A model generated the notes under the pieces. It was not told where the DNA came from, made no database searches, and saw only the letters and a list, made by a program, of their open reading frames with translations. A stretch of DNA of 64,000 nucleotides. Origin: an uncultured Gammaproteobacteria bacterium. Lineage in GTDB: Bacteria > Patescibacteriota > Microgenomatia > UBA8517. The position numbers were made by a program, and so were the translations under genes. Every line of letters starts with the position of its first letter. The stretch's first letter is position 1. Positions 1 through 55,163 of this stretch are shown in pieces. Location: assembly GCA_964502815.1 (NCBI GenBank), contig CAZCXV010000001.1:71907-135906 (forward strand), in the 5' to 3' direction.

Positions 1-1
1 C

Positions 2-739
2 CTGACGGCAGGACTTGACAATTGTGTTGGTGACTATGCAATTATTTTTTCTCTCTATCTTGATCCAATCGAAATACTTCCTGAATTAATCGCAAAACTT
101 AAATCGGGGTCAAACCTGGTTATTGGCAAAATGAAAAAAAATCCTGTCAAACTTTATGGCCCATCAAAGCTAATTGTCTCGATTGCTGAAAAATTTTCCA
201 CGACCGGCTGGATATATCGGAGTAATTATACTCTTGCTTTAGATAGAAAAGCCCTAAATTCTGTCATTAGAACCAGGAGAAAAAGTAGAAATTTTAGCTA
301 TATTAATTCTCTAATTGGTCTTAAGAAATCAACATTAAGATATATGCCAATCACAAAATATAAAAACCTGATTAGACGTGAAGATTTCTTCTCACTCATC
401 ACTACTATTCTTAATACTGCCATATCAAATTCATTTAAGCCAATAAGATATCTTAGTTTAATTGGCATGCTTTTTTCTTTTTTGTATATTTTATATGTAA
501 TCATTATTCTTATCTTGTATTTTTTCTTTGACCAAAAACAACTAATTCCAAAGGGTTGGGTAACCATATCAGTAGTACTAGGAAGTATGTTTTTCCTACT
601 CTTCTCAACTCTGTCTGTAATTTCTGAATATGTAATTAGAACCCTAATTGAAACAAGACAAGAACCATTTTACTTCATCTCAGAGGAAATAAATAAAACT
701 GAAATTTTGCCTAAAAAGAAAAGATTAAATATCATTTAA
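2..739 (+). CDS. GT2 polyprenyl-phosphate glycosyltransferase (GtrB/ArnC/DPM1-like), 5'-truncated by window edge
   Basis: The frame is open from nt 2 upstream of the listed ATG, with no stop. The translated C-terminal region shows two TM helices and a …SVISEYVIRTLIE tail, typical of GtrB/CsbB-like GT2 enzymes. Only the C-terminal ~245 aa are in the window. Confidence 0.55.
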   Translation: MTAGLDNCVGDYAIIFSLYLDPIEILPELIAKLKSGSNLVIGKMKKNPVKLYGPSKLIVSIAEKFSTTGWIYRSNYTLALDRKALNSVIRTRRKSRNFSYINSLIGLKKSTLRYMPITKYKNLIRREDFFSLITTILNTAISNSFKPIRYLSLIGMLFSFLYILYVIIILILYFFFDQKQLIPKGWVTISVVLGSMFFLLFSTLSVISEYVIRTLIETRQEPFYFISEEINKTEILPKKKRLNII

Positions 740-6606: not shown

Positions 6607-7077
6607 TTAAATCGAAGTTAACTTGTCTATGTAAATTTTTAGTGAATTAATGTCGTCCTGTAAAAATCTCCACTCAGCACTATCAGAAGAAAAATTTTCT
6701 TGCAATTTTTCGATTTGAGGTATGTAAGCCTCCATTTGTTCTTTTGCACTACCAGCTTCACTTTTTAAACTCTTAGCCACTATCACCTCTGATAACTGAC
6801 CAGCAGTAGCTGAATACCTTAAAGTTGCCTTTTCAAAATAAAACATTTTTTTGTTTTCAACTATATAGGTTAATTCATCCATTCTCTTTGCAAGTAATTT
6901 ACTTAAATGAGCTGATTTTGCTTTAGCAGAGAATTTGAAGATTAATGTTACCTTTTCTTTTAATCTTTTAACTTTATAGCTCGAAGAATTATCTGGATTC
7001 ACATTTTCCTTTGCCTGAACCACTGGAGCGAAAAATAAAGGTAATAAAACCAACATTAATATCAAAAACCTTTTCAC
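6607..7077 (-). CDS. secreted hypothetical protein (signal peptide, coiled-coil; DUF5667-like)
   Basis: N-terminus MKRFLILMLVLLPLFFAPVVQA looks like a cleavable signal peptide. The rest is charged and helical. 156 aa. Confidence 0.4.
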   Translation of the reverse strand: MKRFLILMLVLLPLFFAPVVQAKENVNPDNSSSYKVKRLKEKVTLIFKFSAKAKSAHLSKLLAKRMDELTYIVENKKMFYFEKATLRYSATAGQLSEVIVAKSLKSEAGSAKEQMEAYIPQIEKLQENFSSDSAEWRFLQDDINSLKIYIDKLTSI

Positions 7078-7868: not shown

Positions 7869-8789
7869 ATGGATATTTCTGTAGTTATTCCAGTTTACAA
7901 CGAAGAGAGAAACTTAGCTCCTCTTTGCAGGAGGTTGAAATCCACATTATCAAGATTTAGCAAAAGTTATGAGGTAATTTTTATAAATGACGGTAGTAGC
8001 GACTCTTCCCTACCGGAACTGAAAAAATTAAGAAAAGCAGATCGTAAAATTAAAATTGTTAGTTTTTCAAGAAATTTCGGTCATATGGCTGCTGTCAGTG
8101 CCGGCTTAAAGGCGGCAAGCGGTAAAAAGGTAGTCGTTATGGATGCCGATTTACAAGATCCTCCTGAAGTTATTACTAAAATGTACAGCAAAGCCAAGAC
8201 AGGATATGAAGTTGTCTATGGGATAAAAGAAAAACGCAAAGAAGGCATATTTAAAAGACTTGCATTTAACCTTTTTTATCTAATTCTTGACAAAGTAACA
8301 CATCTTAAAATGCCACTCAATGCAGGCACCTTTAGTCTACTTGACCGCAAAGTGGTTGATATCTTAAACGCTCTACCTGAAAGAAACAAATACTTCAGTG
8401 GTATGCGTATTTGGGCAGGATTTTCTCAAACAGGAATTACTTACGAACGCCAAGCAAGAAAAGGTGGTAAAGCGTCGTCCTTAGGTAAATTAATAAAGCT
8501 AGCTCTTGACGGACTTCTATCATTCTCGTTTCTACCACTCAGACTAGCCAGTATGTTAGGTTTTCTTTTTTCGATTATTGCATTCATATTCATCTTCTTT
8601 GTCGCCTTTGGTAGAGTAATTCTTGGAATTGGCGTTATTGGTTGGGCATCTACCATATCAGTAATTCTTCTACTTGGAGGGATACAACTAATTACTTTGG
8701 GTATTATCGGTGAATACTTAGCACGGATATTTGATGAAGTAAAGGCCAGACCAGAATATGTAATTAAAGAAAAAATTGGTTTTAAATAA
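7869..8789 (+). CDS. GT2 polyprenyl-phosphate sugar synthase (GtrB/ArnC/CsbB-like) with C-terminal TM helices
   Basis: Motifs SVVIPVYNEE, FINDGSSDSS and MDADLQDPPE, followed by two C-terminal TM helices ending …IGEYLARIFDE. 306 aa. Confidence 0.7.
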   Translation: MDISVVIPVYNEERNLAPLCRRLKSTLSRFSKSYEVIFINDGSSDSSLPELKKLRKADRKIKIVSFSRNFGHMAAVSAGLKAASGKKVVVMDADLQDPPEVITKMYSKAKTGYEVVYGIKEKRKEGIFKRLAFNLFYLILDKVTHLKMPLNAGTFSLLDRKVVDILNALPERNKYFSGMRIWAGFSQTGITYERQARKGGKASSLGKLIKLALDGLLSFSFLPLRLASMLGFLFSIIAFIFIFFVAFGRVILGIGVIGWASTISVILLLGGIQLITLGIIGEYLARIFDEVKARPEYVIKEKIGFK

Positions 8790-8793
8790 ACGC

Positions 8794-9813
8794 TTATTTT
8801 TTCCTTAGATCATCAGATACTCTTTTAAAATCTAATATGAATTTTCTTATATTTGTCGGCTTTGAAAGATTTGTGAATACTTGTTGATCTGATACTGCTC
8901 TCAGTTTTTGAACTATAGTTCTATTTTTAAGAGTATTTGTAATGTTTGTGAGATTCCAGAAAACGGCTTTTGCGATCATTTTTGCACTCTTTAACTGTCC
9001 CTTAAGCAAAAAGGCTATAGATATACCAACAGAAAAAACAAGGTGAAGAGGTAATATATATAATAGATTTGGAAAAGATAAATTTTTAATAAGTGAAATA
9101 ATTCTATTTTTATAGTAGTGGAAGTTAATGTTACCAACGTCAAGCCTTTTAATTGTAAAACCAACTTTATGTTTTATTTTCGCTTCTGGAAAAAAGAGCA
9201 CTCGCCAACCAGCAAGCCAGACTCTCCAGCAAAAGTCACTTTCTTCAAAATATGAAACAAAATAATCGTCAAATAAACCAAGTTTATCTACAACGCTTTT
9301 TCGAATAAGCATACAAGCGCCTTTCGCAGAGAAAATTTCTTTTTCTTTCCCAAATTCAGGTGAGTCTTTTTGGCCAAAACCCCAATGCTCTAAAAAACCA
9401 ATTTTAGTAAAATACGATCCTGCGTTATCAAGGTATCCTGGTTTATCCATCATAAATATCTTTGGTTGCAAAACTCCGATTGTTTTATCGGATTCCATTT
9501 TAGAAACCAAAATATTAAGGAAATTTTTACTTACCTTAGTATCATTATTTAAAAGAAGAACATACTTCCCAGATGTTTTTTTGACACCCTGGTTGTTCGC
9601 AGGCGCAAATCCCAAGTTGTCTCTATTTTTTATAGTAACAGTTTTAATGTTTTTAGCTCTAAAGTTATCGCTCCCATCAGTAGACCCATTATCAACAACA
9701 ATAAGTTCACAATTTTTGTAGGCAATCTCTTCAAGTGAAGAAAGGCAGTCCTTAAATATCTGTCCTCCATTCCAGTTAACAATAATAATTGAAACCAATG
9801 GGTTATTTGTCAT
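8794..9813 (-). CDS. GT2 family glycosyltransferase
   Basis: Motifs VSIIIVNWNGG, VVDNGSTDGS and LLNNDT, the rhamnosyl/WcaA-like GT2 pattern. 339 aa. Confidence 0.6.
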   Translation of the reverse strand: MTNNPLVSIIIVNWNGGQIFKDCLSSLEEIAYKNCELIVVDNGSTDGSDNFRAKNIKTVTIKNRDNLGFAPANNQGVKKTSGKYVLLLNNDTKVSKNFLNILVSKMESDKTIGVLQPKIFMMDKPGYLDNAGSYFTKIGFLEHWGFGQKDSPEFGKEKEIFSAKGACMLIRKSVVDKLGLFDDYFVSYFEESDFCWRVWLAGWRVLFFPEAKIKHKVGFTIKRLDVGNINFHYYKNRIISLIKNLSFPNLLYILPLHLVFSVGISIAFLLKGQLKSAKMIAKAVFWNLTNITNTLKNRTIVQKLRAVSDQQVFTNLSKPTNIRKFILDFKRVSDDLRKK

Positions 9814-10657
9814 AACTTTTAAACATTCTGAAAAAAGTATTTAGAGTTTCAAGAACACCCACTGCACTCATAAAGCCAAATCCGGCAGCAAAGGTTTCTA
9901 AAGTACGTACAAAGAGAAATGGTATAGAGACAAAAGGATTGGTTAAAAATTTTTTCCAATTCTTAAGATAGGCACGTCGTACAATCAGTATACCCTGTTT
10001 TCTGATTAACTCTGGGTGTTTTTGAGCATACGTCGCACTTTTATTCGCGTAATAATACTTTTTTGCTAACTGCTTTAACAGTGTAAGCTGGTGTTCGTGG
10101 TGAAGAATATATTTTTTAGCCCATCCAATCGAATGCTTTTTGGCTATTCGATGTGGTAAATCATAATCCTCTGTCCCAGTTAAATTCTTGTCATATCCAC
10201 CAAATTGCTCAAAAACTTTCTTTTCAAAAAACCTCGCTACTTCGATTGTCTGATCTCCCATATACATTTCTCTTTCAAACCGTCTTATTTTTGCCATGAA
10301 ATTATTCCCAACTGTTTTTTCTGGAACAATTAATGCTTTATTAGCATTGATGTTTGTAATACAACTTTCCACAACCTCTGGTGTTAACTCCATATCTGCG
10401 TCGAGAACGAGAACATATTTACCATTTGCTCTCGAGACTCCAAAATTCCTCTGGACGCTCCTTTCCGCATGCTTTCTGGCAAACACTTGATCAGCTAGTT
10501 TTCTGGCAATCTCTACAGTTCTATCGCTTGATCCGTCATCAACTACAATAGATTCAACATACGGGTACGTCTGTCTTTGAACAGATTCCAAAAATCTTTT
10601 GATGTTTTTCTCCTCATTGAAGGCTGCAACAACGATTGAAACGAGCGGTTTATTCAT
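9803..10657 (-). CDS. GT2 family glycosyltransferase
   Basis: Motifs VSIVVAAFNEEKNI, VVDDGSSDRT and LDADME. 284 aa. Confidence 0.6.
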   Translation of the reverse strand: MNKPLVSIVVAAFNEEKNIKRFLESVQRQTYPYVESIVVDDGSSDRTVEIARKLADQVFARKHAERSVQRNFGVSRANGKYVLVLDADMELTPEVVESCITNINANKALIVPEKTVGNNFMAKIRRFEREMYMGDQTIEVARFFEKKVFEQFGGYDKNLTGTEDYDLPHRIAKKHSIGWAKKYILHHEHQLTLLKQLAKKYYYANKSATYAQKHPELIRKQGILIVRRAYLKNWKKFLTNPFVSIPFLFVRTLETFAAGFGFMSAVGVLETLNTFFRMFKSYDK

Positions 10658-10699
10658 CTTATGCTATTTTACATTAAAGTTGTAGTATAATTCGACCAG

Positions 10700-11647
10700 A
10701 TGACAACTACTACCCCAAACATTTCCTTTATTATCCCAGCCAAAAATGAGGCAGAATCACTTCCGAAGTTATATAGCGAGATTATTTTAGAAGTAAGAAG
10801 ACTGAAGGAAAGCTATGAAATCATCTTTATTGACGACGGGTCAACCGATGAGACCTTTGCAGTTCTTAAAAAGCTTTATGCAAAAGACAAACAAGTAAGA
10901 CTAATTCGCCACAGAGGAAACTGGGGAAAGGCTGCTGCCTTACAAAACGGGTTTCAGATGTCTAGAGGTAACATTTTAATTACCCTTGATGCTGACTTAC
11001 AAGATAATCCCGCTGACATCGAAAAGTTTCTGAAAAAACTTGAGGCAGGTTATGATTTAATCGTTGGTTGGAAAAAAACAAGACATGATCCAATAAGCAA
11101 AATTATATCGTCAAGAGTTTTTAACAAAACTGTAGCCCTATTAACCAAAACCAATCTTCACGATATCAACTGCGGATTCAAGGCTTTTAGAAGGCAAGTT
11201 GTCGAAAATATTGACCTTTACGGAGAACTTTTCCGTTTCTTTCCAATATTGGCAGCTAAACAAAACTTTAAAGTCGGTGAAGTTATTGTTCATCACCGTC
11301 CAAGAAAATTTGGTAAATCCAAATTTGGCTTCGAAAGAAGCATTAAAGGCTTTTTAGACCTCTTAACTATTATATTCTTGACCAATTATACCAAAAAACC
11401 GGGACATTTCTTTGGCATGTTTGGTATGGCGTCATTTGGTTTAGGATTCTTGATCGGTCTTTACATTGTCTATCTTCGTGTCATAACTGGAACTATCCAA
11501 TACAGACATCCACTACTTTTTCTAGGAATGCTTCTTATGATAATAGGTGTGCAGTTGGTTTCAACTGGTCTTCTAGCTGAAATGTTTACCAGCTTCTCAC
11601 AAAGAAGAGGTAATTCTAAAAACTACATTAGTGAAATATTAAAGTAG
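10700..11647 (+). CDS. GT2 polyprenyl-phosphate sugar synthase (GtrB/ArnC-like) with C-terminal TM helices
   Basis: Motifs ISFIIPAKNE, FIDDGSTDET and LDADLQDNP, followed by two C-terminal TM helices. 315 aa. Confidence 0.7.
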   Translation: MTTTTPNISFIIPAKNEAESLPKLYSEIILEVRRLKESYEIIFIDDGSTDETFAVLKKLYAKDKQVRLIRHRGNWGKAAALQNGFQMSRGNILITLDADLQDNPADIEKFLKKLEAGYDLIVGWKKTRHDPISKIISSRVFNKTVALLTKTNLHDINCGFKAFRRQVVENIDLYGELFRFFPILAAKQNFKVGEVIVHHRPRKFGKSKFGFERSIKGFLDLLTIIFLTNYTKKPGHFFGMFGMASFGLGFLIGLYIVYLRVITGTIQYRHPLLFLGMLLMIIGVQLVSTGLLAEMFTSFSQRRGNSKNYISEILK

Positions 11648-11657
11648 GTATAGAAAT

Positions 11658-12365
11658 ATGATCATCTCTCACAAGCACAAGTATATTTTCATAAAGCCAA
11701 AAAAAGTTGCTGGAACAAGTATTGAAATTGCATTTAGTAAGTATCTAGGAGAAAAGGATATCATGCCTGCGCTTACCAGCTATTCCAAATCCCACGACAA
11801 AGATGAATATGATCATAAAGCTCGAAACTCAAACGGATTCTATGACCATACGCCACCAGAGAGAATAAAAAAGCAAATAGGCGAAAAGCTTTGGAACAAG
11901 TACTTCAAAGTTACTGCTATTAGAAATCCCTGGGATCTTGTGGTTTCCAGTTATTTTTGGGAATTAAACAAGAAAGTTAGTTTAAAGGATTATTTCAAAG
12001 TAGTAAATTTGAAAGCTTTAATTTTTGATTATTTAAAGGACTTTAGAAAAATCAGAAGACCAATGAACTTTACAAGTTACATCAAAAATCTGCCCAAATC
12101 ATACGTTAATACAAATTACTACTTTGACTCTAAAGGCAAACCGCTAGCAAACTACTTCATTCGATACGAAAATCTAGAAAACGATTTCAAAAAAGTTTGC
12201 AAAAAAATTGGCATTCCAGCAGAGACGCTTCTTTCCTTAAAATCTAAAACCAGAAACTCTAAGAAACACTACTCGGTCTATTATACAAAAGAAACCAGAG
12301 ATATAGTAGCCAAGATATTTGAAAAAGAAATAACTTACTTTAAGTACAAATTCGAGGCTAAGTGA
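11658..12365 (+). CDS. PAPS-dependent sulfotransferase family protein (putative carbohydrate sulfotransferase)
   Basis: A 5'-PSB-like P-loop KPKKVAGTSIE (PKxGTT-type) and a 3'-PB-like VTAIRNPWDLVVSSYF (RDPxxRxxSxY-type). Both motifs in the correct order and spacing for Sulfotransfer_2-type enzymes. 235 aa. Confidence 0.5.
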   Translation: MIISHKHKYIFIKPKKVAGTSIEIAFSKYLGEKDIMPALTSYSKSHDKDEYDHKARNSNGFYDHTPPERIKKQIGEKLWNKYFKVTAIRNPWDLVVSSYFWELNKKVSLKDYFKVVNLKALIFDYLKDFRKIRRPMNFTSYIKNLPKSYVNTNYYFDSKGKPLANYFIRYENLENDFKKVCKKIGIPAETLLSLKSKTRNSKKHYSVYYTKETRDIVAKIFEKEITYFKYKFEAK

Positions 12366-12375
12366 ACTAGCCATA

Positions 12376-14778
12376 TTACCAAAACTTTTTTATTCTTGCC
12401 TTATAAATATCGACTTCTACAGGATAAGCAAGACAGCCAAGTTTGAATACCGGATTTTTTAATCCTAGAGTGGGCAGTTTGATTGCATATTCTCTAGATA
12501 TTCCATCTGGAATAAGTTGAAATTTTTTCTGATCCCTACCATGACTTTGACTTTCCCAAATAACACAAGCAGAGATACCCTCTTTCATGTAATTTGCCAA
12601 TGAGTCTCGCTCTCTAGAGTTGTTAATATACTTATAGGGACTGTTCATTACATAACCGAGTTTATCAAGATCTAGCTGGACATACTTCGGATCTAAAAGG
12701 ATAATTTCTTGAATTCGTGGTGCGTCAGATTGTGTTTCAGTAACTGTCAGGGTTAGAGTTTTTACCCGCTGTGAAGGAAAAAATATTTTAGCCAAACCAT
12801 CCATGCCCTTGGCATATACATATTCTGTCGGTTTACCATTTATAGCAATATCAAAACCGGTAGGTTTATGGGGTGAATTTTGGAAAAACGCAAATCCTCT
12901 CAAAGTCACTGGATTATTAAACTCAACGTCTATTTTGGGGTAATTTCCGTCGTACCAACTAGCCCGATCATACTCCCAATAGGTTGAATCATCTGCATCA
13001 AAGGCCGCTGAAATTTCATGTTTGAATTTGAAATCCCCTGACAATTTACTAATTTTTTGCCTTATTTTTTTAGAGTCAGTCAAAAGATCGTAATAATAAT
13101 TGATATCTGGAATATAATTGCCTACTCCTCCGTGGCTATATGGCAACGGGAATTCAAACATACTAGCCTTTAGTGTCAAATATACTGTTGAGGGTATATT
13201 TGAATTAAATTTCTGGAGTTTAAATTCTGGTTCTGTGTTTTTGCCAACCCAAGTGCCGCTATTTGCATCCTGGAAAATTTCGGTTTCATAATGCTTACTT
13301 ATATCTTCTACCACCTCATTTTCACTATCCTCAGAAAACAACTCTTTTTTTAGATTTTCAGTTGTATCTATTAAATTGTTTTTCTGATAATAGTAACTAA
13401 AAAACTTATCTCGGACAATGCTTCCTCGTTTCCAATAGTCTATTAGTGTTTCGCTATCTGTTAATAATTCAAAATCGTCTATGTTAGCTTTAAGCGCGTA
13501 ACCAATAGAGGCTTTTGACGGGTAATGACCCACCCTTGTCAGCTCTCCGATTCCTCCAGGACCACGAGGGCCATCCAAAAAAATTACACTGCCCTTAGAT
13601 AACGTTGGGGAATATTTTTTCAACCCTTCGAAAAAATTATGCTTATTTATGCTTATTTGGGTGAGAGTATCTAGATATCTTGAAGTTAAAAAAACATTAG
13701 TTATTACTATTACAATCAATAGCCATTTAGTAATTTCTCTATGCTTGAAGGAAAACGCTCCAAGCAAAAATAAAAAACCGGGATAGAAATAGTAAAAATG
13801 CCTATCCTCTCTACCGATCCACGAAGGTGTTACCATTGCCTTAGGAATAAATTGACCAATAATCCACACTAAGGAAAAAAGTGATAACAATAATATCCTT
13901 TTATTGTTTCGGTTAACAAATGCATAGATAGCACCAGTCAACATTAAAGTTAGTCCTACCAAATATCTCAACCTTTCTGTATATAAAAAACTTAATACCT
14001 CAGGGGTATAGTCTTGCAACCTTTCGGGAATAAGGAAAAAGCTAACAGACGCAAGAAGGTGCTTGAATTTGAGAAATAAATAACTAAACGTTATTTCAGT
14101 ACTTGGCACACTCTTTGTAAAAGTCAGTATTTCTCCACTTTCTGTGTAGGGTAGATATAAATACGTGCGAAAAGTTAATAAACAAAATATCACAATCAAC
14201 AATAACTTGTTTTTCTGCTTAATCTTAAAATCAAGGAGTAACAGCAAGAAGGGGAAAATCAGCAATATATGCCCAGTCGAAAAAACTGTAAAGTATTCCA
14301 AGGAGAAGAAATATACACCAACAGCAACCAAATGATAAAACACTCTCTTATCTTTTGGAAATGAAAGGAACATTAAACTTAAGAGCGACAAGCTAATAGC
14401 AACATTGGCAAGCAAAGCATAGTATCCCAAGACAACATCCTCTCCTCCCATACTCACTAAACCTAAAGCCAATAAAAGTGCAATTGTCTGATTAAAATAT
14501 TTTTTTGAAAAAAGATAAAAAGTAAAACCAAGGACAATTCTAGACAAAAAAGAAAGAGTAAAAAATATCCTGGGCTCATCACCAAAAAATGAATACAAAC
14601 TATTTAGTACAGGACAGATAGTTTTAAAAGGCCAGAGGAACGGACAAATTTGATGTACACCATTGTAGGCCATAGTAAAGGCATCTCCAAAATAATAAAA
14701 GTCTAAAGATTTGTTAATAGCCATGAAGGCAACAACAGCTATTAGTATCGGGGCCAACAGTCTCTTAACCAAATACAT
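12376..14778 (-). CDS. large polytopic membrane protein (GT-C-like) with C-terminal discoidin/F5-8 type C-like carbohydrate-binding domain
   Basis: 800 aa. The N-terminal ~400 aa is multi-TM. The C-terminal soluble part contains …NPVTLRGFAFFQNSPHKPTGFDIAINGKPTEYVYA…, resembling discoidin domains. Confidence 0.35.
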   Translation of the reverse strand: MYLVKRLLAPILIAVVAFMAINKSLDFYYFGDAFTMAYNGVHQICPFLWPFKTICPVLNSLYSFFGDEPRIFFTLSFLSRIVLGFTFYLFSKKYFNQTIALLLALGLVSMGGEDVVLGYYALLANVAISLSLLSLMFLSFPKDKRVFYHLVAVGVYFFSLEYFTVFSTGHILLIFPFLLLLLDFKIKQKNKLLLIVIFCLLTFRTYLYLPYTESGEILTFTKSVPSTEITFSYLFLKFKHLLASVSFFLIPERLQDYTPEVLSFLYTERLRYLVGLTLMLTGAIYAFVNRNNKRILLLSLFSLVWIIGQFIPKAMVTPSWIGREDRHFYYFYPGFLFLLGAFSFKHREITKWLLIVIVITNVFLTSRYLDTLTQISINKHNFFEGLKKYSPTLSKGSVIFLDGPRGPGGIGELTRVGHYPSKASIGYALKANIDDFELLTDSETLIDYWKRGSIVRDKFFSYYYQKNNLIDTTENLKKELFSEDSENEVVEDISKHYETEIFQDANSGTWVGKNTEPEFKLQKFNSNIPSTVYLTLKASMFEFPLPYSHGGVGNYIPDINYYYDLLTDSKKIRQKISKLSGDFKFKHEISAAFDADDSTYWEYDRASWYDGNYPKIDVEFNNPVTLRGFAFFQNSPHKPTGFDIAINGKPTEYVYAKGMDGLAKIFFPSQRVKTLTLTVTETQSDAPRIQEIILLDPKYVQLDLDKLGYVMNSPYKYINNSRERDSLANYMKEGISACVIWESQSHGRDQKKFQLIPDGISREYAIKLPTLGLKNPVFKLGCLAYPVEVDIYKARIKKFW

Positions 14779-15571
14779 ATTCTTTGAATCTGAAGAAATA
14801 CCTTCCTAAGGATCTAAATTCTTTAACTGCCTTTCTTGTTGGAAACGAGAAATATCTTCCTCCTTTGTTGGTTATTGTTTTAGTTTTCTTGTTTGCAATT
14901 TCTTCAATCGCTTCACTTAGGATGGTAGATCCGACTTCAACACAACGCCAATAAAGCGAATCTTCCGTATCGGTTTTGCTAATTTCAACTTTTTTCCTTT
15001 TTATAATTTCTCCCGTATCTATGCCCTTATTTATATAGTGAACACTTATCCCAGAATATTTTTCTTTATTCACGATTGACCAAAATATCGGACTTATTCC
15101 TTTATAATCTGGTAAGTATGCTGGGTGAACATTAATCACTCCCAACTTTGGAATCCTAATAACTGGCTCCTTTAAGATTTGACTAAAAAGTACTGATATC
15201 ACCAGATCTGGCTTCTGTTTTCTAATTAGTTTGATTGACTCAATTGAGTTAATATTTGCAATCGATATCACTTTTATACCTTTATTGCTCGCTTGAGATT
15301 TATAGCTAAAAAATTTATTAGCCTTCAAAAATCCAAATAAGGAGATCATTGATGATAACTGTCTATATATTTGCAGCTTAATCAATTGATTAATAACATA
15401 ACTAAACCCAGATGTTTTCAAATAAAAAGCTAGGGTCTGAAAATTACTTTTATTCTTCAGTTGTGTTGACGGTTCGATTATTAGTTTTATCTGCGTTCCA
15501 TAAGTAGCAATCAAATCCTTCAGAATCTTGTTCGCATAAACATGGTTTACTGTTAATACTATTATTTTCAT
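14765..15571 (-). CDS. formyltransferase family protein (sugar N-formyltransferase / ArnA-FT / Fmt-like)
   Basis: …GVINVHPAYLPDYKGISPIFWSI… matches the formyl_trans_N HxSLLPxxRG-type motif. 268 aa. Adjacent to a GT2 gene. Confidence 0.6.
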   Translation of the reverse strand: MKIIVLTVNHVYANKILKDLIATYGTQIKLIIEPSTQLKNKSNFQTLAFYLKTSGFSYVINQLIKLQIYRQLSSMISLFGFLKANKFFSYKSQASNKGIKVISIANINSIESIKLIRKQKPDLVISVLFSQILKEPVIRIPKLGVINVHPAYLPDYKGISPIFWSIVNKEKYSGISVHYINKGIDTGEIIKRKKVEISKTDTEDSLYWRCVEVGSTILSEAIEEIANKKTKTITNKGGRYFSFPTRKAVKEFRSLGRYFFRFKEYVFG

Positions 15572-16325: not shown

Positions 16326-17150
16326 ATGAAATGCTTTGTCTGCAAGAAAAATAGCTGGGAAAGTCACTACAAGGATCTTTTCCGATGTAGTAACTGCGGC
16401 TTTATAAGAGCTAAAGAAATATATTTTAAGATTAAACCTGAAGAGGTTTATGGCAAGGATTACTTTGACAAAGGACAATATGCAAATTACAAAAAAGAGA
16501 GACTGGCACTGGAACAAAATTTTAAGAACCGCTTGAAGGATATCATAAAACATAAAAGGGAAGGAAAACTTTTGGAAATAGGTTGTGCATATGGATATTT
16601 TCTAAATTTGGCCAAAAAAAATTTCATAATTAGCGGTATTGATGTAAATTCTCAAACAACTAACATTGCTAGTAAATTAACAGGGATAAAAACCCTAACT
16701 GGTGATTTTTTAACTCAAAAATTTTCTAAAAATACCTTTGATGTTGTTTCTCTTTTTGATACAATTGAACACCTTCAAAAACCAAAAGCATATCTTGAGA
16801 AAATACATACACTGTTAAAACCTGGTGGAATTGTGGCAATAGAAACGGGAGACATTGACAGTTTATTAGCTAAAGTTCAAAAAGAGAGATGGAGATTAAT
16901 AGATCCAAGTGTCCACCTTACTTACTTTAGTACCAAAACACTTAGAAATTTACTCGAAAACACCGGCTACCGTATTTTGTCAATAAAAAAAGTTTCCTTT
17001 GCAAGGTCACTTATTCAAATAACCTATCGACTCGGAATAAATAATATATTACGTCATTTAAAATTGAATTTTTTAGAAAAGTTTATTAGTAATAAAAACA
17101 TTAGCATTAATACTTATGACATCATTTTTGTAATCGCACAAAAACAATGA
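16326..17150 (+). CDS. class I SAM-dependent methyltransferase with N-terminal CxxC…CxxC zinc ribbon
   Basis: MKCFVCKK…CSNCGF zinc ribbon, then LLEIGCAYGYFLNL (motif I). The track ORF begins at 16287 but would overlap the divergent GT2 gene. The start at 16326 (MKCFVC) is more plausible. Confidence 0.55.
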   Translation: MKCFVCKKNSWESHYKDLFRCSNCGFIRAKEIYFKIKPEEVYGKDYFDKGQYANYKKERLALEQNFKNRLKDIIKHKREGKLLEIGCAYGYFLNLAKKNFIISGIDVNSQTTNIASKLTGIKTLTGDFLTQKFSKNTFDVVSLFDTIEHLQKPKAYLEKIHTLLKPGGIVAIETGDIDSLLAKVQKERWRLIDPSVHLTYFSTKTLRNLLENTGYRILSIKKVSFARSLIQITYRLGINNILRHLKLNFLEKFISNKNISINTYDIIFVIAQKQ

Positions 17151-18052
17151 AAGCAATTTTTCACAATGATGACTTTGGCCTAACCTATGGTTTTACTGAC
17201 GCCATAAAAGATAGCTTTCAAAATGGCGTTACAACAAGTACAAGCTTAAGAACAAATGGCTTTGCTTACAAATACGCAGTTAAACTTTCCAAAGGACCGC
17301 TTAGAAAAATTGGCTTGGGTTTGCACGTTAATATTACCCAAGGAAAAGCACACACTAAAGGCGAAGTAGAAAAATTTGGTGTATATAAGTATAACTTTCG
17401 AAAACTATTTTTGAAGTTATTTGTTATGAACCTACTTAAAATGAAGCAGGGTGTTTTGCTCAAAGATCTTGAGCGAGAAATTGAAGCTCAGTTTGTAATA
17501 GTACTCAAGAAAGACAAGTTAAAAATTTCCCGAGTTGATGGCCACGATCATATACACATGATCCCTGAAGTCTTTCATATAGTTTGTAAGTTATGCAAAA
17601 AATACAACATCGGCTATATTCGCATCCCAAGAGAACCTTTTTATTTTACAGGTTTTCTGAAACAGGATCTTAAAATGATATTCAGCGACAACCTCTTGAA
17701 AGCTCTTATTTTGACTATTTTGTCTGCGGTAAACATTAAGATTGCCAAATCTTATAAACTTAAAACTGTTGACGCCTATTACGGGCTTCTTAATTCAAAC
17801 AATATGAGCTTTTTGGCCATCAATGCAGCTCTTTTGAATGCTTCAAGAAATAATTACGATACTATAGAAATTAATTCACATCCTGCAATAATTAACGATC
17901 CAAGAGATGTAAACTACGTTGACAATTTTATATCCAAATATGCCAATCTAAACACTAGAGAAATTGAACATCTAGGTCTTAAAAGTCAGTTAGTAAAGAA
18001 AACAATTAAGAAATATAAAATTAAACTGACGAACTGTGAAAATATTATTTGA
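17147..18052 (+). CDS. YdjC/ChbG/HpnK-family carbohydrate deacetylase
   Basis: N-terminal HNDDFGLTYGFTDAIKDSFQNGVTTSTSL and the later DGHDHIHM match YdjC-family metal-binding motifs. 301 aa. Confidence 0.55.
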   Translation: MKAIFHNDDFGLTYGFTDAIKDSFQNGVTTSTSLRTNGFAYKYAVKLSKGPLRKIGLGLHVNITQGKAHTKGEVEKFGVYKYNFRKLFLKLFVMNLLKMKQGVLLKDLEREIEAQFVIVLKKDKLKISRVDGHDHIHMIPEVFHIVCKLCKKYNIGYIRIPREPFYFTGFLKQDLKMIFSDNLLKALILTILSAVNIKIAKSYKLKTVDAYYGLLNSNNMSFLAINAALLNASRNNYDTIEINSHPAIINDPRDVNYVDNFISKYANLNTREIEHLGLKSQLVKKTIKKYKIKLTNCENII

Positions 18053-24014: not shown

Positions 24015-25090
24015 ATTATCGTACAAAAATATCTTTTGGGTAGCCAAACCGTTTTTAATGTCAAAATAAGCCCAGCTAAGTGGTAAACGAGTAATAGCGC
24101 TATACCTTTCAAGGTTTGAATCTTCTGCAAGTACCATTGAAGAAAGTTCAATCGCTGGCTCTTTTGGGTTAGTAGTTTTCTTTCCATTAAAGTATCTGAA
24201 ACATATTCCCCAGCAAGTTTGTTTGCATAAAATGATGGATGCTGGTCATTCGGATTTAAAACCAATAGTTTTTTATCTTCTACTCCTTTGAATTTCTCAT
24301 ACAAATCGATTACTTTGATGTTGTTATTGCTTGCTAAGGTTGATATCGTTTCGTGAAAAAAACTGAATTGATAATTACGATTAGGATTCAATGCATCATA
24401 TTGAGGAAAAACAACTAAAACCGGTGTTGCATTTATTTTCTTTACAGAATTGGAAAACATTTCCAGAAGTTGTTTAGTACGGTCATATTCCCCACTGCCC
24501 AAAGTATATGCTTTTTTAACCTCTGACATAGTTTTGTTTCCAGATTTAACCTTTTCTATCATGCCATGTGTCAACCAATAGATTCGCAGTGAACGAACTA
24601 ATTTACTTTTTACATATTTTGGTGGAAATTCTTTAAACACAAAATCTTGAGCATTTATCCCAATTAGCACCAAATCTGGATTAAAAGCAAGGCCTTCATC
24701 ATTAAGACGAGTCAGTTCGGTTTCAAAATTAAAGCCTGGTCTAGCTGCGTTAATTATCTCAACATTTGAAAATCCATACTGTTTCACAAGATATTCCTTC
24801 ATTACCTCAGGAAATGACTGCCCTTTTTCAAGATACCATCCGTAAGTATATGAATCGCCTAAGATATATATTCGGATCGTATCCTTATTTTTTTCTATTT
24901 TTACCTCTTTCTCCCAATAGCCAAAATTATTTAAAACTACGTTTTTCGACAACCAGTCAAAATCGTTTCTTTTGTACCTGGGATCAAGAAATGGTGGGTG
25001 CCAAAATATCCTCAGTAGAACCTCTACAAACAGAAGAACTGCAAGTGTAACTCCAAATATTTTCAAAAGTTTCAAATAGAGAGCTTTCAT
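24011..25090 (-). CDS. membrane-anchored SGNH/GDSL-family hydrolase
   Basis: An N-terminal TM helix, then the block I motif IYILGDSYTYG and a C-terminal DQH (DxxH) catalytic motif. 359 aa. Paralog of 32118-33209. Confidence 0.5.
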   Translation of the reverse strand: MKALYLKLLKIFGVTLAVLLFVEVLLRIFWHPPFLDPRYKRNDFDWLSKNVVLNNFGYWEKEVKIEKNKDTIRIYILGDSYTYGWYLEKGQSFPEVMKEYLVKQYGFSNVEIINAARPGFNFETELTRLNDEGLAFNPDLVLIGINAQDFVFKEFPPKYVKSKLVRSLRIYWLTHGMIEKVKSGNKTMSEVKKAYTLGSGEYDRTKQLLEMFSNSVKKINATPVLVVFPQYDALNPNRNYQFSFFHETISTLASNNNIKVIDLYEKFKGVEDKKLLVLNPNDQHPSFYANKLAGEYVSDTLMERKLLTQKSQRLNFLQWYLQKIQTLKGIALLLVYHLAGLILTLKTVWLPKRYFCTII

Positions 25091-26169
25091 TTGATTAAGA
25101 ATGGCTTGACTAACCTTGCCACCTTAATTACCTCACTGTCAGTTACAACAGCGTCCAGTGGCAATGTGGCTACTTTATCTCCGACGTATTCTGTAACAGG
25201 CAATTTTTTAGTCCGATATTTCTCAAAAGCTGGCTGCAGGTGTAAAGGTGTAAAATGAAATGAACAACCAACTCCATTCTTTTTCATATGCTCAAAAAAT
25301 TTATCTCTATCTTTAACCAATACAGGGTACAAATGCAGACCTTTGTTATCAAGATCTAGCAGTTTATTATATAAATTTACAACATGAGTTCTCCTTTTCA
25401 GAAACCCGTTAAGCCTTTTCAACTGTACTCTGCCTAAAGCCGAGTTAATATCCGTCGTGTTAACCTTATATCCTGGAAATTCGACTGTGTAAATCCATTT
25501 TGAATTAAGATTGTATCGTTTCCAAGCATCTTTAGATAATCCATGCAATCTCGCTTTCCGAAACCAATCTGCAACTTTATCATCTGATGTAGTAAGCATT
25601 CCACCTTCACCAGTGGTCATGTTTTTTGTTGCATAAAATGAGTATGCAGTTGCAAACGCCTTGTTATTGTCACAACCACTTTCTGTCAAATGTGCACTAT
25701 CTTCAATTACTGGAATCTCTGTCTTTATTTTTGCTTTATTTGCTGCGTAATGGACTGGGATTACCGCCTTGGTTTTTCGAGATAATACCGATTCAAGTGA
25801 TTTCTGGTCCATAGTAAAGGTATCTTCATTGATATCAGCAAAAACAGGTGTCGCTCCAACATGGACAATAACACTTACGGAGGAAGCAAAAGTAAACGAA
25901 GGCACTATTACCTCATCACCTGGCCCAACGTTCAAAGCTTTCAAAGCAAGGAATAGAGCAGAGGTAGCACTGTTAACCGCCACTGCGTGTTTAGCGCCAA
26001 CATATCTTGCAAATTCATCCTCAAATTTTAACGTCTCATGTCCCATGGTCAACCAACCGCTTTTGAGCACTCTAGTAACGGCATTTATCTCTGCCTTTCT
26101 TATAGAAGCTCTGGTCAATGGTATTTGCTTCATATTCTTTACGATAAACCTCATTAACTTGCCACCCAT
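25087..26169 (-). CDS. DegT/DnrJ/EryC1/StrS-family PLP-dependent sugar aminotransferase
   Basis: …FEDEFARYVGAKHAVAVNSATSALFLALKAL… plus the PLP-lysine region SFYATKNMTTGEGGM. 360 aa. Confidence 0.7.
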   Translation of the reverse strand: MGGKLMRFIVKNMKQIPLTRASIRKAEINAVTRVLKSGWLTMGHETLKFEDEFARYVGAKHAVAVNSATSALFLALKALNVGPGDEVIVPSFTFASSVSVIVHVGATPVFADINEDTFTMDQKSLESVLSRKTKAVIPVHYAANKAKIKTEIPVIEDSAHLTESGCDNNKAFATAYSFYATKNMTTGEGGMLTTSDDKVADWFRKARLHGLSKDAWKRYNLNSKWIYTVEFPGYKVNTTDINSALGRVQLKRLNGFLKRRTHVVNLYNKLLDLDNKGLHLYPVLVKDRDKFFEHMKKNGVGCSFHFTPLHLQPAFEKYRTKKLPVTEYVGDKVATLPLDAVVTDSEVIKVARLVKPFLIK

Positions 26170-27569
26170 TTAAGATAAGGTGTGTATTTCTTTAATATTT
26201 GATAAATCTTTCTATTATCTCCAATTTCTGACGCCATTAATAGATCTGTCAAGTCCTCATCTTGAAAAATTTTACCATTTTTGTTTTTTGCCATTCTAAT
26301 TCTATCAATTGACGTTTTAACAACATTTTCCTCATCGTTAAACAACTCTTCTGACATCTTTTCTCCTGGCCTAACACCAGTATAGTTGATTTTTATTTCT
26401 TCGTCCGGAATAAAACCAGCAAGTCTAATCATTGTTCGCGCGAGATTATCTATCTTTATTTGTTCACCCATATCTAGAACAAAAACTTCTCCACCTGTAC
26501 TTAAAATCGAAGCATGCAACACTAGCTGAACCGCCTCAGGAATAGACATAAAATAACGGATCATTCTTTTATCTGTGACAGTTACTGGTCCTCCCTTTGC
26601 TATTTGTCTTTTAAACGTCGGGACAACACTTCCTACGCTTCCAAACACATTACCAAATCTAACAGCACAGTATTGAGTTCTATTTTTGTTATTAAACCCG
26701 GAAATAATCTTTTCACCCACTAGTTTCGTCGCTCCCATAATACTTGTTGGATTAACGGCTTTATCTGTTGATAAGTAAACAAATTTCTCTACTCCCCTTT
26801 CATATGCCGCTCTAGCTACATTGTGGGTACCAGCGACATTGTTTTTGATGGCTTCTTCGGGAAATATTTGCATCAGTGGTACATGTTTGTAGGCCGCAGC
26901 ATGAAAAACAATTTCAGGATTGTATTCTCTCATGACTTCGTACAACTTTTTATAGTCTCGAATGTTTGCAATTGAGTAATAAATACGATCTTTGTATTCC
27001 TTGAGTTCGACTCCAAGCTCATATAAACCATTTTCAGACCAATCAAGCGCAATAATCTTTTTTGGATTGCAAGATACTAGTTGCCTGCAGATCTCAGACC
27101 CAATCGATCCAGCTGCTCCAGTTATTAGGATTGTTTTGTTTTTAAATTTCTTTTTGAATAACTCTACACTTGATTTCAAAATAGCTCTACCTAAAATGTC
27201 TTCTACTTGTATTTCTCTTACTTGCTGTAGTTTTACTTTGCCTTCAACTATTTCCGAGAGTCTAGGAATGATTTTGAACTGTACTTTAACTTCCCTGCAC
27301 AAATCTATGATTCTCCTGACCGTTTCACCCTCACCTGAAGGAATAGCTATAAACACTTCGTTAATATGATATTTACTAATAAGCTGTGGAAGTTCGTTTG
27401 TATTACCCAAGACATTAAAGGAATTAATTTTTTGCTTTTGTTTTTTTGGGTCGTCATCAACAAGGCCAATTATTTCGTAAAAGTTAGGTAAATTCTTTAC
27501 TATTTCATCAACCAATTCTTGACCAGCAACTCCTGCACCAACAATTAATATTTTTTGTTTTTCTCTCAT
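26154..27569 (-). CDS. polysaccharide biosynthesis protein, NDP-sugar 4,6-dehydratase (CapD/PglF/WbpM-like)
   Basis: Two Rossmann motifs (ILIVGAGVAGQELV and KTILITGAAGSIGSEICRQLV). 471 aa, the size and architecture of CapD-like dehydratases. Confidence 0.65.
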   Translation of the reverse strand: MREKQKILIVGAGVAGQELVDEIVKNLPNFYEIIGLVDDDPKKQKQKINSFNVLGNTNELPQLISKYHINEVFIAIPSGEGETVRRIIDLCREVKVQFKIIPRLSEIVEGKVKLQQVREIQVEDILGRAILKSSVELFKKKFKNKTILITGAAGSIGSEICRQLVSCNPKKIIALDWSENGLYELGVELKEYKDRIYYSIANIRDYKKLYEVMREYNPEIVFHAAAYKHVPLMQIFPEEAIKNNVAGTHNVARAAYERGVEKFVYLSTDKAVNPTSIMGATKLVGEKIISGFNNKNRTQYCAVRFGNVFGSVGSVVPTFKRQIAKGGPVTVTDKRMIRYFMSIPEAVQLVLHASILSTGGEVFVLDMGEQIKIDNLARTMIRLAGFIPDEEIKINYTGVRPGEKMSEELFNDEENVVKTSIDRIRMAKNKNGKIFQDEDLTDLLMASEIGDNRKIYQILKKYTPYLKWVAS

Positions 27570-41805: not shown

Positions 41806-41813
41806 ATCTTAAG

Positions 41814-55137: not shown

Positions 55138-55141
55138 ATTC

Positions 55142-55163
55142 ATTTAGTTCCAGTAAACTAAAT
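55142..55163. terminator. short AT-rich hairpin between convergent PMT-like genes (possible bidirectional terminator)
   Basis: atttagtt-ccagta-aactaaat, an 8-bp stem and 6-nt loop between the stops at 55137 (+) and 55163 (-). Weak, AT-only stem. Confidence 0.2.

Follow-up and report, generated by a model that had tools for sequence, protein, structure and literature searches.

A predicted PAPS-dependent sulfotransferase of the PF03567 family within a conserved Woesebacteria-type glycan island

The animal enzymes of the PF03567 family, among them heparan sulfate 2-O-sulfotransferase and the chondroitin/dermatan sulfotransferases (CHST), are Golgi type II membrane proteins. NodH works together with dedicated PAPS-synthesis genes. 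Lechner, Wieland and Sumper reportedly described, in 1985, sulfated dolichyl-phosphate oligosaccharides in the N-glycosylation of Halobacterium salinarum. For the Woesebacteria-type CPR group, we know of no experimental work on the chemistry of the envelope. The defining features of PF03567 are a PSB lysine on a strand-loop-helix and a PB serine on a strand-turn-helix, and a His base has been described for PF03567 and PF00685 enzymes (PMC11625862). The bacterial carbohydrate sulfotransferases that have been characterised, NodH (PF13469), Stf0 and the Mesorhizobium KpsS, use PAPS to sulfate hydroxyl groups of sugars in glycolipids or oligosaccharides, and archaeal PF03567 candidates are uncharacterised (PMC11625862). 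In cyanobacteria, genes of PF03567, PF00685 and PF13469 lie mostly inside polysaccharide clusters (PMC8205485). In the literature that we searched, CPR bacteria and sulfotransferases were found mentioned jointly in a single paper, and there only in passing.

Here we analyse a gene that very probably encodes a soluble PAPS-dependent sulfotransferase of a very large and already catalogued family, and that lies within a conserved sugar-assembly cluster of a Woesebacteria-type bacterium with a tiny genome. Since this family is very large and already recognised by Pfam and by NCBI annotation, our finding is an annotation-level insight with a testable hypothesis, and neither a new kind of enzyme nor a new mechanism.

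The protein, its fold and its PAPS-binding residues

The gene occupies positions 11658..12365 on the plus strand of the window, by which we mean the whole stretch of 64,000 nucleotides that was analysed. In the ORF listing of the window, an ATG opens a frame of 235 aa at this position, and the start is backed by an N-terminus shared among homologues: MI[IV]SH was found in 74/74 aligned homologues, and the alignment began at M1 in 129 of 140 relatives that were found independently, without a word index. The protein matched the Pfam HMM of PF03567 (Sulfotransfer_2) at 31.2 bits, above the gathering score of 22 (E 3.1e-7), and the match ran end to end (residues 2-231; profile positions 4-252 of 252). 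A search of the NCBIfam models with the same protein gave no match. When a profile of the subfamily was compared with PDB sequences, weak PB-region matches to cytosolic SULTs were obtained (E 0.06), and the HS2ST and CHST chains were not reached; the corresponding search with the single sequence returned a Csm5 match alone, which we judged spurious. Neither a TM-like segment nor a signal peptide was found in the protein (max KD19 0.56), and we therefore regard it as cytoplasmic. A promoter/terminator scan around the gene yielded 5 promoter-like sites, compared with 7.5 expected from shuffles.

The AF2 model of the protein was confident (pLDDT 93.6, pTM 0.90). In a Foldseek search against the PDB, the best 50 matches were all PAP(S)-binding sulfotransferases, with probabilities up to 0.99 and TM scores of 0.35-0.50, and the top match was 3rnl at a probability of 0.99. 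A viral structure library gave 16 matches at E <= 0.001 (best E 1.8e-8), of which 13 are annotated as sulfotransferases and two are nameless, the sole named exception being Gp5.1 of Roseobacter phage SIO1. The least conserved and least confident part of the model was the substrate-binding part at residues ~105-160, with a pLDDT of 70-87.

Both elements that would bind PAPS are present, and in the expected order. The 5'-PSB element, KPKKVAGTSIE (aa 13-23; 11694..11726, plus strand), contains K16 as the conserved PSB lysine; in the model, its loop at residues 13-18 is preceded by a strand (9-12) and followed by a helix (19-27). The 3'-PB element, VTAIRNPWDLVVSSYF (aa 85-100; 11910..11957, plus strand), falls on a strand (83-88), a turn and a helix (91-104). 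K16 is kept in 74/74 homologues and 140/140 relatives and S21 in 74/74 and 135/140, while G19 and T20 are each conserved at 88% or more; R89, N90, P91 and S97 were each found in all 140 relatives. Position 94 is more variable, with K in 50, R in 33, L in 15 and M in 11 of these relatives, such that the Leu94 found here is a minority variant. Between the two elements lies His64 (11847..11849, plus strand), which is conserved in 74/74 homologues and 139/140 relatives and sits in a loop preceding helix 67-74. We consider it a candidate catalytic base, because PF03567 and PF00685 enzymes use a His in this role (PMC11625862). In the C-terminal part, a basic pair, K195 and R199 (12240..12254, plus strand), is conserved as well (72/74 and 132/140 for K195; 73/74 and 132/140 for R199), and may possibly provide extra PAPS contacts.

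These results bear on an earlier sequence-only reading, in which the 235-aa frame and the two motifs were pointed out and a sulfotransferase was proposed. The frame and the order of the motifs are as described there, and two of the checks that it suggested, an HMM search and a structure prediction, returned the Sulfotransfer_2 profile over its whole length and the sulfotransferase fold, respectively. Its assignment of the PB element to an RDPxxRxxSxY pattern holds for R89, P91, S97 and Y99 and fails at the central Arg, which is Leu94 in this protein. Its argument from rarity proved weaker than it was put: the prokaryotic subfamily to which the protein belongs, here called MIISH, comprises 32,392 cluster representatives from bacteria, archaea and CPR, 2,617 of them at E <= 1e-30, and homologues are already annotated automatically.

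Identity to hundreds of bacterial, archaeal and CPR proteins ranged from 30 to 70%. Homologues on Woesebacteria-type contigs are full-length at 56-70% identity with every catalytic and PAPS-contact residue intact, which argues for purifying selection. Relatives at 42-48% identity come from CPR, DPANN, Gammaproteobacteria and Methanosarcinales, a spread that suggests horizontal transfer; cyanobacterial homologues reach 32-35%, and the best match in a scan of species-representative genomes was 48% identical. Most homologues carry a precomputed PF03567 match, and NCBI names them "sulfotransferase family 2 domain-containing protein". To our knowledge, and in the literature that we read, no member of the subfamily has been characterised biochemically, and function is predicted for all of them.

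The sugar-assembly island around the gene

Upstream of the sulfotransferase gene lies a block of four GT2 genes. GT2a (7869..8789, plus strand) is a polyprenyl-phosphate sugar synthase of the PgfS/GtrB type, scoring 246.9 bits against the NCBIfam PgfS model, below its cut-off. GT2b (8794..9813) and GT2c (9803..10657), both PF00535, are on the minus strand. GT2d (10700..11647, plus strand; PF00535, 5e-35) is a polyprenyl-phosphate sugar synthase of the ArnC/GtrB type that carries a TM hairpin in its C-terminal part, with TM-like segments at 237 and 269. Its matches in the PDB search included ArnC (9hwj, E 4.6e-41 over residues 7-313) and GtrB (5eke, 2.6e-30), and the GtrB-like GT2 that the sequence-only reading had placed upstream is thus borne out as a full-length ArnC/GtrB-like protein. 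GT2d ends 10 nt before the sulfotransferase gene on the same strand, and is its probable operon partner.

Downstream, a gene for a polytopic membrane protein of 800 aa (12376..14778, minus strand) converges on the sulfotransferase gene, with a gap of 10 nt. In this protein, an N-terminal half containing ~8 or more hydrophobic segments is combined with a C-terminal beta-sandwich, which is possibly discoidin-like (F5_F8_type_C, E 0.041, 14.4 bits, below the gathering score of 28.2). It gave no Pfam GT-C match and no PDB sequence match, a homology search with it found two relatives only, and its AF2 model, built on a shallow alignment, had a pLDDT of 50 overall and of 65-90 at residues ~600-710; the GT-C-like character that the sequence-only reading gave it is therefore putative. 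The gene overlaps by 14 nt with one for a sugar N-formyltransferase-like protein (14765..15571, minus strand; PF00551, 4.3e-29), similar to the N-domain of ArnA and to Fmt, whose matches in the PDB were Fmt, ArnA and sugar N-formyltransferases. In two relatives (P0142 and L090), the formyltransferase and the membrane protein form a single fused protein. Further along the island, a DegT/ArnB-like aminotransferase is encoded at 25087..26169.

The island is collinear with that of Woesebacteria GW2011_GWB1_45_5 and with three further contigs, and the sulfotransferase gene is kept in all of them, which brings to five the independent contigs that have it in this island (the window, L001, L090, L091 and L092). 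In each case it directly follows a co-directional GT2 of the GtrB/ArnC type, with either a 10-nt gap or a 4-nt overlap. The identity of this GT2 varies, being GT2d in the window and the orthologue of GT2a (59-62% identity) in the other four; orthologues of GT2b and GT2c, in the same order, are 61-62% identical in L001 and 39-57% in L090. Because the partner changes between genomes, a fixed enzyme pair is unsupported, and we rejected the idea of a dedicated GT2-sulfotransferase pair. In the family at large, a glycosyltransferase (GT2, GT4 or ELM1-like) was found within 5 kb at 39 or more of 73 non-redundant loci, a lower bound since only three GT profiles were used in this search. The position of the gene in a conserved sugar-assembly cluster can reasonably be taken as a hint that surface sugars are sulfated.

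Proposed role, PAPS supply and competing readings

We propose, with a probability of about 0.65, that the protein is a soluble PF03567 sulfotransferase that works in the cytoplasm, depends on PAPS and acts on a sugar at the cytoplasmic face. Homology suggests that the 5'-phosphosulfate is held by K16, T20 and S21 of the PSB loop and the 3'-phosphate by R89 and S97 of the PB turn-helix. H64 would deprotonate the hydroxyl of the acceptor, followed by in-line sulfuryl transfer and release of PAP. Judging from the genomic context, the acceptor would be a sugar handled at the cytoplasmic face. It may be a nucleotide sugar; a more attractive candidate is the sugar that the neighbouring ArnC/GtrB-like GT2 would link to polyprenyl phosphate. 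Most likely, then, a sugar precursor or a lipid-linked sugar is sulfated before export. Flipping across the membrane would follow, and one of the many GT-C-type enzymes of the island would transfer the sulfated sugar on the outer side, to yield a sulfated surface glycoconjugate. Going further, we suggest tentatively, and as a rather doubtful extension, that in Woesebacteria-type CPR bacteria the sugar to be sulfated at the cytoplasmic face is linked to polyprenyl phosphate, that it is possibly a formamido or amino sugar, and that it reaches the cell surface by a GT-C route resembling that of Arn. The surface glycoconjugates of these ultra-small episymbionts would then be sulfated and polyanionic.

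The source of PAPS would be either a host or sat and cysC encoded in another part of the genome. In the 64 kb window, searches found no gene for PAPS supply (sat, cysC or cysD/N) and none for PAP removal (cysQ or NrnA); ~130 kb of Woesebacteria-type loci likewise yielded no sat, cysC, cysD/N or cysQ. Family members of Bacillus, Neobacillus and Sporolactobacillaceae have sat (PF01747) and cysC (PF01583) at a distance of 1-4 kb, and at one Bacillales locus (L030) a cysQ-like phosphatase gene (PF00459) is also near; this linkage supports dependence on PAPS. Within CPR, 9.6 kb separate a sulfotransferase homologue of Kerfeldbacteria (locus L009) from an ATP-sulfurylase-type PUA_2 domain. A search with this N-terminal fragment of the Kerfeldbacteria ATP sulfurylase returned only 12 proteins, all of them short PUA_2 proteins and none bearing a CPR name. 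According to He et al. (2021), dozens of genomes from CPR and DPANN encode sat, cysC and cysN; their supplementary METABOLIC tables contain rows for sat and cysC, and the CPR genes were read there as sulfate reduction (PMC7906910). Some Patescibacteria genomes have been reported without sat, cysC and cysN (PMC12239599).

The reading that competes most directly with a sugar acceptor accepts a real PAPS-dependent sulfotransferase, but assumes that it modifies a small metabolite, a membrane lipid or a protein residue, and that its place in the island reflects gene mobility. The gene has indeed moved within the orthologous cluster, from one GT2 to another, and no GT could be recognised within 5 kb at 34 of the 73 family loci. 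A further Woesebacteria locus (L005) carries two tandem homologues outside any large glycan island, adjoining a HAD hydrolase, a pyridoxal-dependent decarboxylase and a nucleotidyltransferase, with a single GT4 ~3.4 kb off; the low conservation and confidence of the substrate-binding residues would also suit another acceptor. Against this stand the recurrence of the gene in the same island in five contigs, tightly behind a polyprenyl-phosphate sugar synthase each time, the fact that the count of GT-near loci is only a minimum, and the prevalence of cyanobacterial PF03567 genes in polysaccharide clusters (PMC8205485). We hold a non-glycan acceptor to be unlikely. Less probable still, and in our view quite improbable, is an intact enzyme that is idle or host-dependent in a reduced genome that makes no PAPS, having been gained recently without function or drawing on scavenged PAPS. 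The lack of sat, cysC and cysQ in the window and the related loci, the Patescibacteria reported without sat, cysC and cysN (PMC12239599), and the mixed phyla of the 42-48% relatives would be compatible with such a history. Against it speak the purifying selection indicated by the Woesebacteria-type homologues, the dozens of CPR/DPANN genomes that encode sat, cysC and cysN (PMC7906910) and the Kerfeldbacteria contig that holds both a homologue and the ATP-sulfurylase-type N-domain.

The chemistry itself could also differ from sulfation by PAPS. APS or another activated sulfate might serve as donor, or the fold might be used in a dehydratase-like manner as in retinol dehydratase, which is among the PDB fold matches; Leu94 stands in for the central Arg in the PB motif, and the function of the subfamily is a predicted one. 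Nevertheless, R89 and S97, the predicted ligands of the 3'-phosphate, are invariant, which favours PAPS over APS, and the Bacillales linkage includes cysC, an APS kinase gene, beyond sat alone. We regard a different donor or chemistry as very improbable. Finally, chance motifs in an unrelated P-loop-like protein would be in keeping with the modest PF03567 score, the negative NCBIfam search and the single-sequence PDB search that gave Csm5 alone. This explanation is effectively refuted: the whole-protein match above the Pfam cut-off, together with motifs that fall on the expected secondary structure, places them beyond chance, fold searches return nearly only sulfotransferases, the PAPS-binding residues are conserved in the 140 relatives of a family with thousands of close cluster representatives, and family genes are linked to sat, cysC and cysQ.

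If the preferred reading, sulfation of a cytoplasmic-face sugar, is right, the surface glycans of a CPR bacterium would carry sulfate esters, and the resulting surface charge could matter for attachment to the host. For sat and cysC, as reported from CPR genomes, a role would also emerge, namely the supply of PAPS for sulfation.

Comparison with known systems

The 235-aa protein is a direct member of the prokaryotic "sulfotransferase family 2" MIISH subfamily, with the same invariant residues, and shows no essential difference from it; what sets this copy apart is its place in a Woesebacteria-type island. With the animal PF03567 enzymes it shares the HMM, passed above its gathering score, and the PSB lysine and PB serine on their respective elements; its invariant His would be the likely base. 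In contrast to them, it is predicted to be soluble and cytoplasmic, is much shorter, and has Leu in place of the central Arg of PxxRxxS. NodH, Stf0 and KpsS belong to other Pfam families with other PSB motifs (RxG in NodH, PMC11625862) and occur in unrelated contexts, although the dedicated PAPS genes of NodH parallel the sat-cysC linkage of the MIISH family in Bacillales.

Among bacterial glycan clusters, the synechan (xss) cluster of Synechocystis PCC 6803 likewise contains sulfotransferase genes, xssA and xssE, within a cluster for an extracellular glycan (PMC8205485). The xss cluster, however, encodes a repeat-unit system of the Wzx/Wzy type that is backed by genetics (PMC8205485), whereas the island described here is predicted to combine polyprenyl-phosphate monosaccharide synthases with GT-C-type transferases.

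The flanking genes follow a logic similar to that of the Arn pathway of L-Ara4N lipid A (ArnB, ArnA, ArnC and ArnT), with GT2d, the formyltransferase, the DegT/ArnB-like aminotransferase and the membrane protein that is fused to the formyltransferase in relatives as the corresponding parts. This suggests a formamido or amino sugar on polyprenyl phosphate that would be transferred outside the membrane. By their sequences, these genes are nevertheless Arn-like and not members of the pathway, scoring far below the NCBIfam equivalog cut-offs (174.5 of 529 bits for ArnC, 102.9 of 777 for ArnA and 271.8 of 631 for ArnB). CPR bacteria are not known to have lipid A, and the Arn pathway itself has no sulfotransferase. 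The order of events that we propose has a precedent in the pathway reported for Halobacterium salinarum, in which the glycan is sulfated on the cytoplasmic side while still lipid-linked and is transferred by a GT-C enzyme afterwards; it differs in being an archaeal dolichol pathway.

Fold, cofactor-binding residues and spread of the family

The sulfotransferase gene was confirmed as read from the sequence (ATG at 11658, stop codon ending at 12365, + strand, 235 aa). Homologues were first gathered via shared exact words, and residues were recounted on 140 further cluster representatives from an exhaustive HMMER search. The start codon is credible, since MI[IV]SH opens 74 of 74 aligned homologues and the alignment begins at residue 1 in 129 of the 140 relatives, a set found without the word index. 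In line with the sequence-only reading, which had placed the protein among Sulfotransfer_2-type enzymes, hmmscan against Pfam gave a Sulfotransfer_2 (PF03567) score of 31.2 bits against a gathering score of 22 (E 3.1e-7), in a single alignment of residues 2-231 to profile positions 4-252 of 252. Sulfotransfer_1 scored slightly below its cut-off, and an NCBIfam scan of the protein returned no matching model.

Sequence searches of the PDB yielded weak matches of the 3'-phosphate-binding (3'-PB) stretch to cytosolic SULTs and were otherwise uninformative. We then found that the best 50 PDB Foldseek matches of an AlphaFold2 model (74-sequence alignment, mean pLDDT 93.6, pTM 0.90) were all PAP(S)-binding sulfotransferases, among them 3rnl (bacterial sulfotransferase, probability 0.99), SULT2A1, SULT1E1 and NDST1, with modest global TM-scores of 0.35-0.50. 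A viral structure library gave 16 matches at E <= 0.001 (best E 1.8e-8) from giant viruses and phages, comprising 13 annotated sulfotransferases, two proteins without a name and Gp5.1 of Roseobacter phage SIO1. Giant viruses (Megaviridae, Pithovirus, Hokovirus, Moumouvirus) and phages (Ralstonia phiRSL1, Synechococcus and Prochlorococcus cyanophages) commonly encode predicted sulfotransferases of like structure.

Both motifs named in the sequence-only reading are present, KPKKVAGTSIE at residues 13-23 and VTAIRNPWDLVVSSYF at residues 85-100. The model predicts strand 9-12, loop and helix 19-27 for the 5'-phosphosulfate-binding loop (5'-PSB), and strand 83-88, turn and helix 91-104 for the 3'-PB; this placement agrees with the published description of the PAPS-binding core (PMC11625862). 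The RDPxxRxxSxY pattern claimed for the second motif holds as R-x-P-x-x-x-x-x-S-x-Y, but its central arginine is Leu94. Among the 140 relatives, K16, R89, N90, P91 and S97 are invariant, H64 and D34 occur in 139, and K195 and R199 in 132, showing that the PAPS ligands and the candidate catalytic histidine are strongly constrained. Position 94 is K in 50, R in 33, L in 15 and M in 11 relatives, and Leu94 is a tolerated minority state. HMM match, fold, PSB lysine and PB serine all place the protein in PF03567, with the central PB arginine as the exception. The protein lacks a hydrophobic segment (maximum 19-residue Kyte-Doolittle mean 0.56). Taken together, these results show a cytoplasmic protein of Sulfotransfer_2 fold whose PAPS-binding residues are intact and whose gene resides in a conserved glycan island.

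Among proteins clustered at 50% identity, the subfamily profile matched 32,392 representatives at E <= 1e-3, falling to 17,392 with a cut-off of 1e-10 and to 2,617 with one of 1e-30. A scan of species-representative genomes gave more than 546 confirmed relatives among the matches listed, which included members of the candidate phyla radiation (CPR; Woesebacteria, Paceibacteria, Kerfeldbacteria), archaea (Methanosarcinales, Thermoplasmatota, Bathyarchaeia), Bacillus species, cyanobacteria, Alphaproteobacteria, Planctomycetes and others. Several homologues already carry the NCBI name 'sulfotransferase family 2 domain-containing protein'. The subfamily is ordinary and very widespread in prokaryotes, its function being a predicted one.

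The glycan island and the position of the gene

The entire 64-kb window consists of glycan-biosynthesis genes, a very large investment for a reduced genome. We counted at least 11 GT2, 5 GT4, 7 methyltransferases and about 14 polytopic membrane glycosyltransferases of PMT_2 or YfhO type, six of which form a single head-to-tail run (40138..50084); a DegT aminotransferase, a PglF/PseB-like dehydratase, a formyltransferase, a YdjC protein and SGNH hydrolases accompany them. Another notable stretch lies at 53482..56917, and small DUF5667 proteins are encoded at 6607..7077 and 30714..31280. The sulfotransferase is the sole member of its family in the window.

Its upstream neighbour, GT2d (10700..11647, +), is the GtrB-like GT2 that had been described: it is related over its full length to ArnC and GtrB (PDB E 4.6e-41 and 2.6e-30) and carries a C-terminal TM hairpin, which together identify it as a polyprenyl-phosphate sugar synthase. 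A gap of 10 nt separates its end from the start of the sulfotransferase gene. Downstream and convergent lies a gene for an 800-aa polytopic membrane protein (12376..14778, -), with the formyltransferase gene (14765..15571, -) upstream of it on its strand and overlapping it by 14 nt. Behind the discoidin-like label given to the 800-aa protein stands a sub-threshold Pfam match (E 0.041), with some support from a beta-sandwich modelled with moderate confidence at about residues 600-710; the model is otherwise poor (pLDDT 50). Formyltransferase and 800-aa protein are fused as one 1052-aa protein in Woesebacteria GW2011_GWB1_45_5 (L090, 13999..17157) and in the relative P0142, the two parts showing 54% and 40% identity. 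This fusion is a Rosetta-stone link from sugar N-formylation to a membrane, possibly GT-C, enzyme. A scan for promoters and terminators around the sulfotransferase gave nothing better than shuffles.

Identity to the 800-aa protein in the A2 alignment was 42% for P0142, 100% for P0136 and P0137, and 98% for P0138. On a short metagenome contig (L086 1668..3213, JGI 3300009031), a sulfotransferase 100% identical to that of the window faces a convergent neighbour of 400 aa (P0137), followed by a LemA gene in place of the remaining island. This arrangement is either a strain-level rearrangement or an assembly artefact.

Window positions 131 to about 20094 are collinear, gene for gene, with LCLA01000001 of Candidatus Woesebacteria GW2011_GWB1_45_5 (L090; 32-68% protein identity), and the same island is collinear with L001 (GCA_964587425.1). 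On this collinearity, the window probably stems from a CPR bacterium of Woesebacteria type. L090 holds a 157-aa DUF5667 homologue between GT2c and GT2d. The sulfotransferase occurs in all collinear islands at 59-64% identity, in a differing slot: after the PgfS/GtrB-like GT2a in L001, L090, L091 and L092, and after the ArnC-like GT2d in the window (blocks compared: window 7869..12365, L001 9075..13540, L090 9078..13991). In every island it is co-directional and tightly packed with the preceding GT2. Since only 4 nt separate GT2a (7869..8789, +) from GT2b (8794..9813, -) in the window, and 7 nt separate GT2d from the next gene in L090, the alternative slots leave no room for a sulfotransferase remnant. 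The sulfotransferase is an island gene without one fixed partner.

PAPS supply, family neighbourhoods and alternative readings

For 84 loci, 73 of them non-redundant, we predicted ORFs, clustered them and checked representatives against Pfam. Five of the 73 have genes for ATP sulfurylase (PF01747) and APS kinase (PF01583) at a distance of 1-4 kb from the homologue: Bacillus cytotoxicus (L013), Neobacillus drentensis (L015), B. multifaciens (L016), a Sporolactobacillaceae MAG (L030), which also has a nearby CysQ-like phosphatase (PF00459), and B. pseudomycoides (L037). These loci look like a self-contained PAPS-plus-sulfotransferase cassette, and the linkage in Bacillales independently supports PAPS use by the family. 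Against this linkage and the invariant ligands, a donor other than PAPS is improbable even with Leu94, and given the fold matches it is hardly credible that the protein is no sulfotransferase at all. No sat, cysC, cysD/N or cysQ was found in the 64-kb window, nor in related CPR loci totalling about 130 kb, barring one PUA_2 domain, and a homology search for named CPR Sat proteins found none; another study also found no PAPS-supply genes in two Patescibacteria (PMC12239599). An enzyme that is idle or host-dependent, without endogenous PAPS, would fit these absences, but sat, cysC and cysN occur in dozens of CPR/DPANN genomes (He et al. 2021, PMC7906910). PAPS-supply capacity thus exists within the radiation, and we regard such an enzyme as unlikely. 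An acceptor other than a glycan deserves the most weight among the alternatives, though it too is rather doubtful: the window is a glycan island, and a GT2, GT4 or ELM1-like gene lies within 5 kb in at least 39 of the 73 loci.

The PUA_2 domain, of ATP-sulfurylase type (1..335, E 4.5e-30), lies in Candidatus Kerfeldbacteria (L009), 9.6 kb from a sulfotransferase homologue (9929..10735, 42% identity), with UDP-glucose dehydrogenase, GT2 and GlmS genes between. This sat gene runs off the end of the fetched locus, where its N-terminal PUA_2 domain is seen.

Two or more paralogues occur in 20 of the 73 loci, and Sulfotransfer_3 and Sulfotransfer_4 families are frequent neighbours. In Planctomycetes (L040, L047, L058, L068, L078, L083) a cassette recurs, consisting of an ABC_membrane plus ABC_tran exporter, an ELM1-like gene (PF06258), Sulfotransfer_3 and then the Sulfotransfer_2-subfamily gene, with identical spacing in several loci (e.g. 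L047, L058, L068, L083). This arrangement suggests a conserved system whose exported molecule is multiply sulfated. Some Alphaproteobacteria loci likewise have ABC and ELM1-like genes close to family members. In a Gammaproteobacteria MAG (L012, 12849..14306), a 485-aa ORF is an apparent fusion of an N-terminal sulfotransferase-like part (GxxKTGTTS motif, Sulfotransfer_4-like by similarity to L031) and a C-terminal CysQ-like part, as judged by clustering and by eye; if true, it would couple sulfuryl transfer to PAP removal.

A possible reaction and its known counterparts

By homology, K16, T20 and S21 would bind the 5'-phosphosulfate and R89 and S97 the 3'-phosphate, while H64, as the general base, would promote in-line transfer of the sulfuryl group to a hydroxyl of the acceptor. 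As PAPS and enzyme are both cytoplasmic, sulfation would have to precede export. From the gene context, the most economical acceptors would be a nucleotide sugar or the polyprenyl-phosphate sugar that the adjacent GtrB/ArnC-type synthases make; the sulfated sugar, once flipped, could be attached to an acceptor at the surface by an enzyme of GT-C type. Halobacterium provides a precedent for sulfation at the lipid-linked stage. The literature linking CPR with sulfotransferases amounted to passing mention, and sulfated CPR surface glycans are a hypothetical implication little explored there.

Unlike its animal PF03567 namesakes, the window protein is short and soluble. In cyanobacteria, genes of the families PF03567, PF00685 and PF13469 are located in polysaccharide clusters (PMC8205485); the setting in the window is similar, but differs in its context of polyprenyl-phosphate monosaccharide and GT-C genes. 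The logic of the Arn pathway is mirrored in the flanking genes, all of which score far below NCBIfam equivalog cut-offs: the ArnC-like GT2 (10700..11647), the ArnA-N/Fmt-like formyltransferase (14765..15571), a YdjC-family putative deacylase (17147..18052), and an ArnB/PseC-like aminotransferase with a PseB/PglF-like 4,6-dehydratase (25087..27569). By analogy, this set resembles what might be expected for placing an amino or formamido sugar on polyprenyl phosphate.
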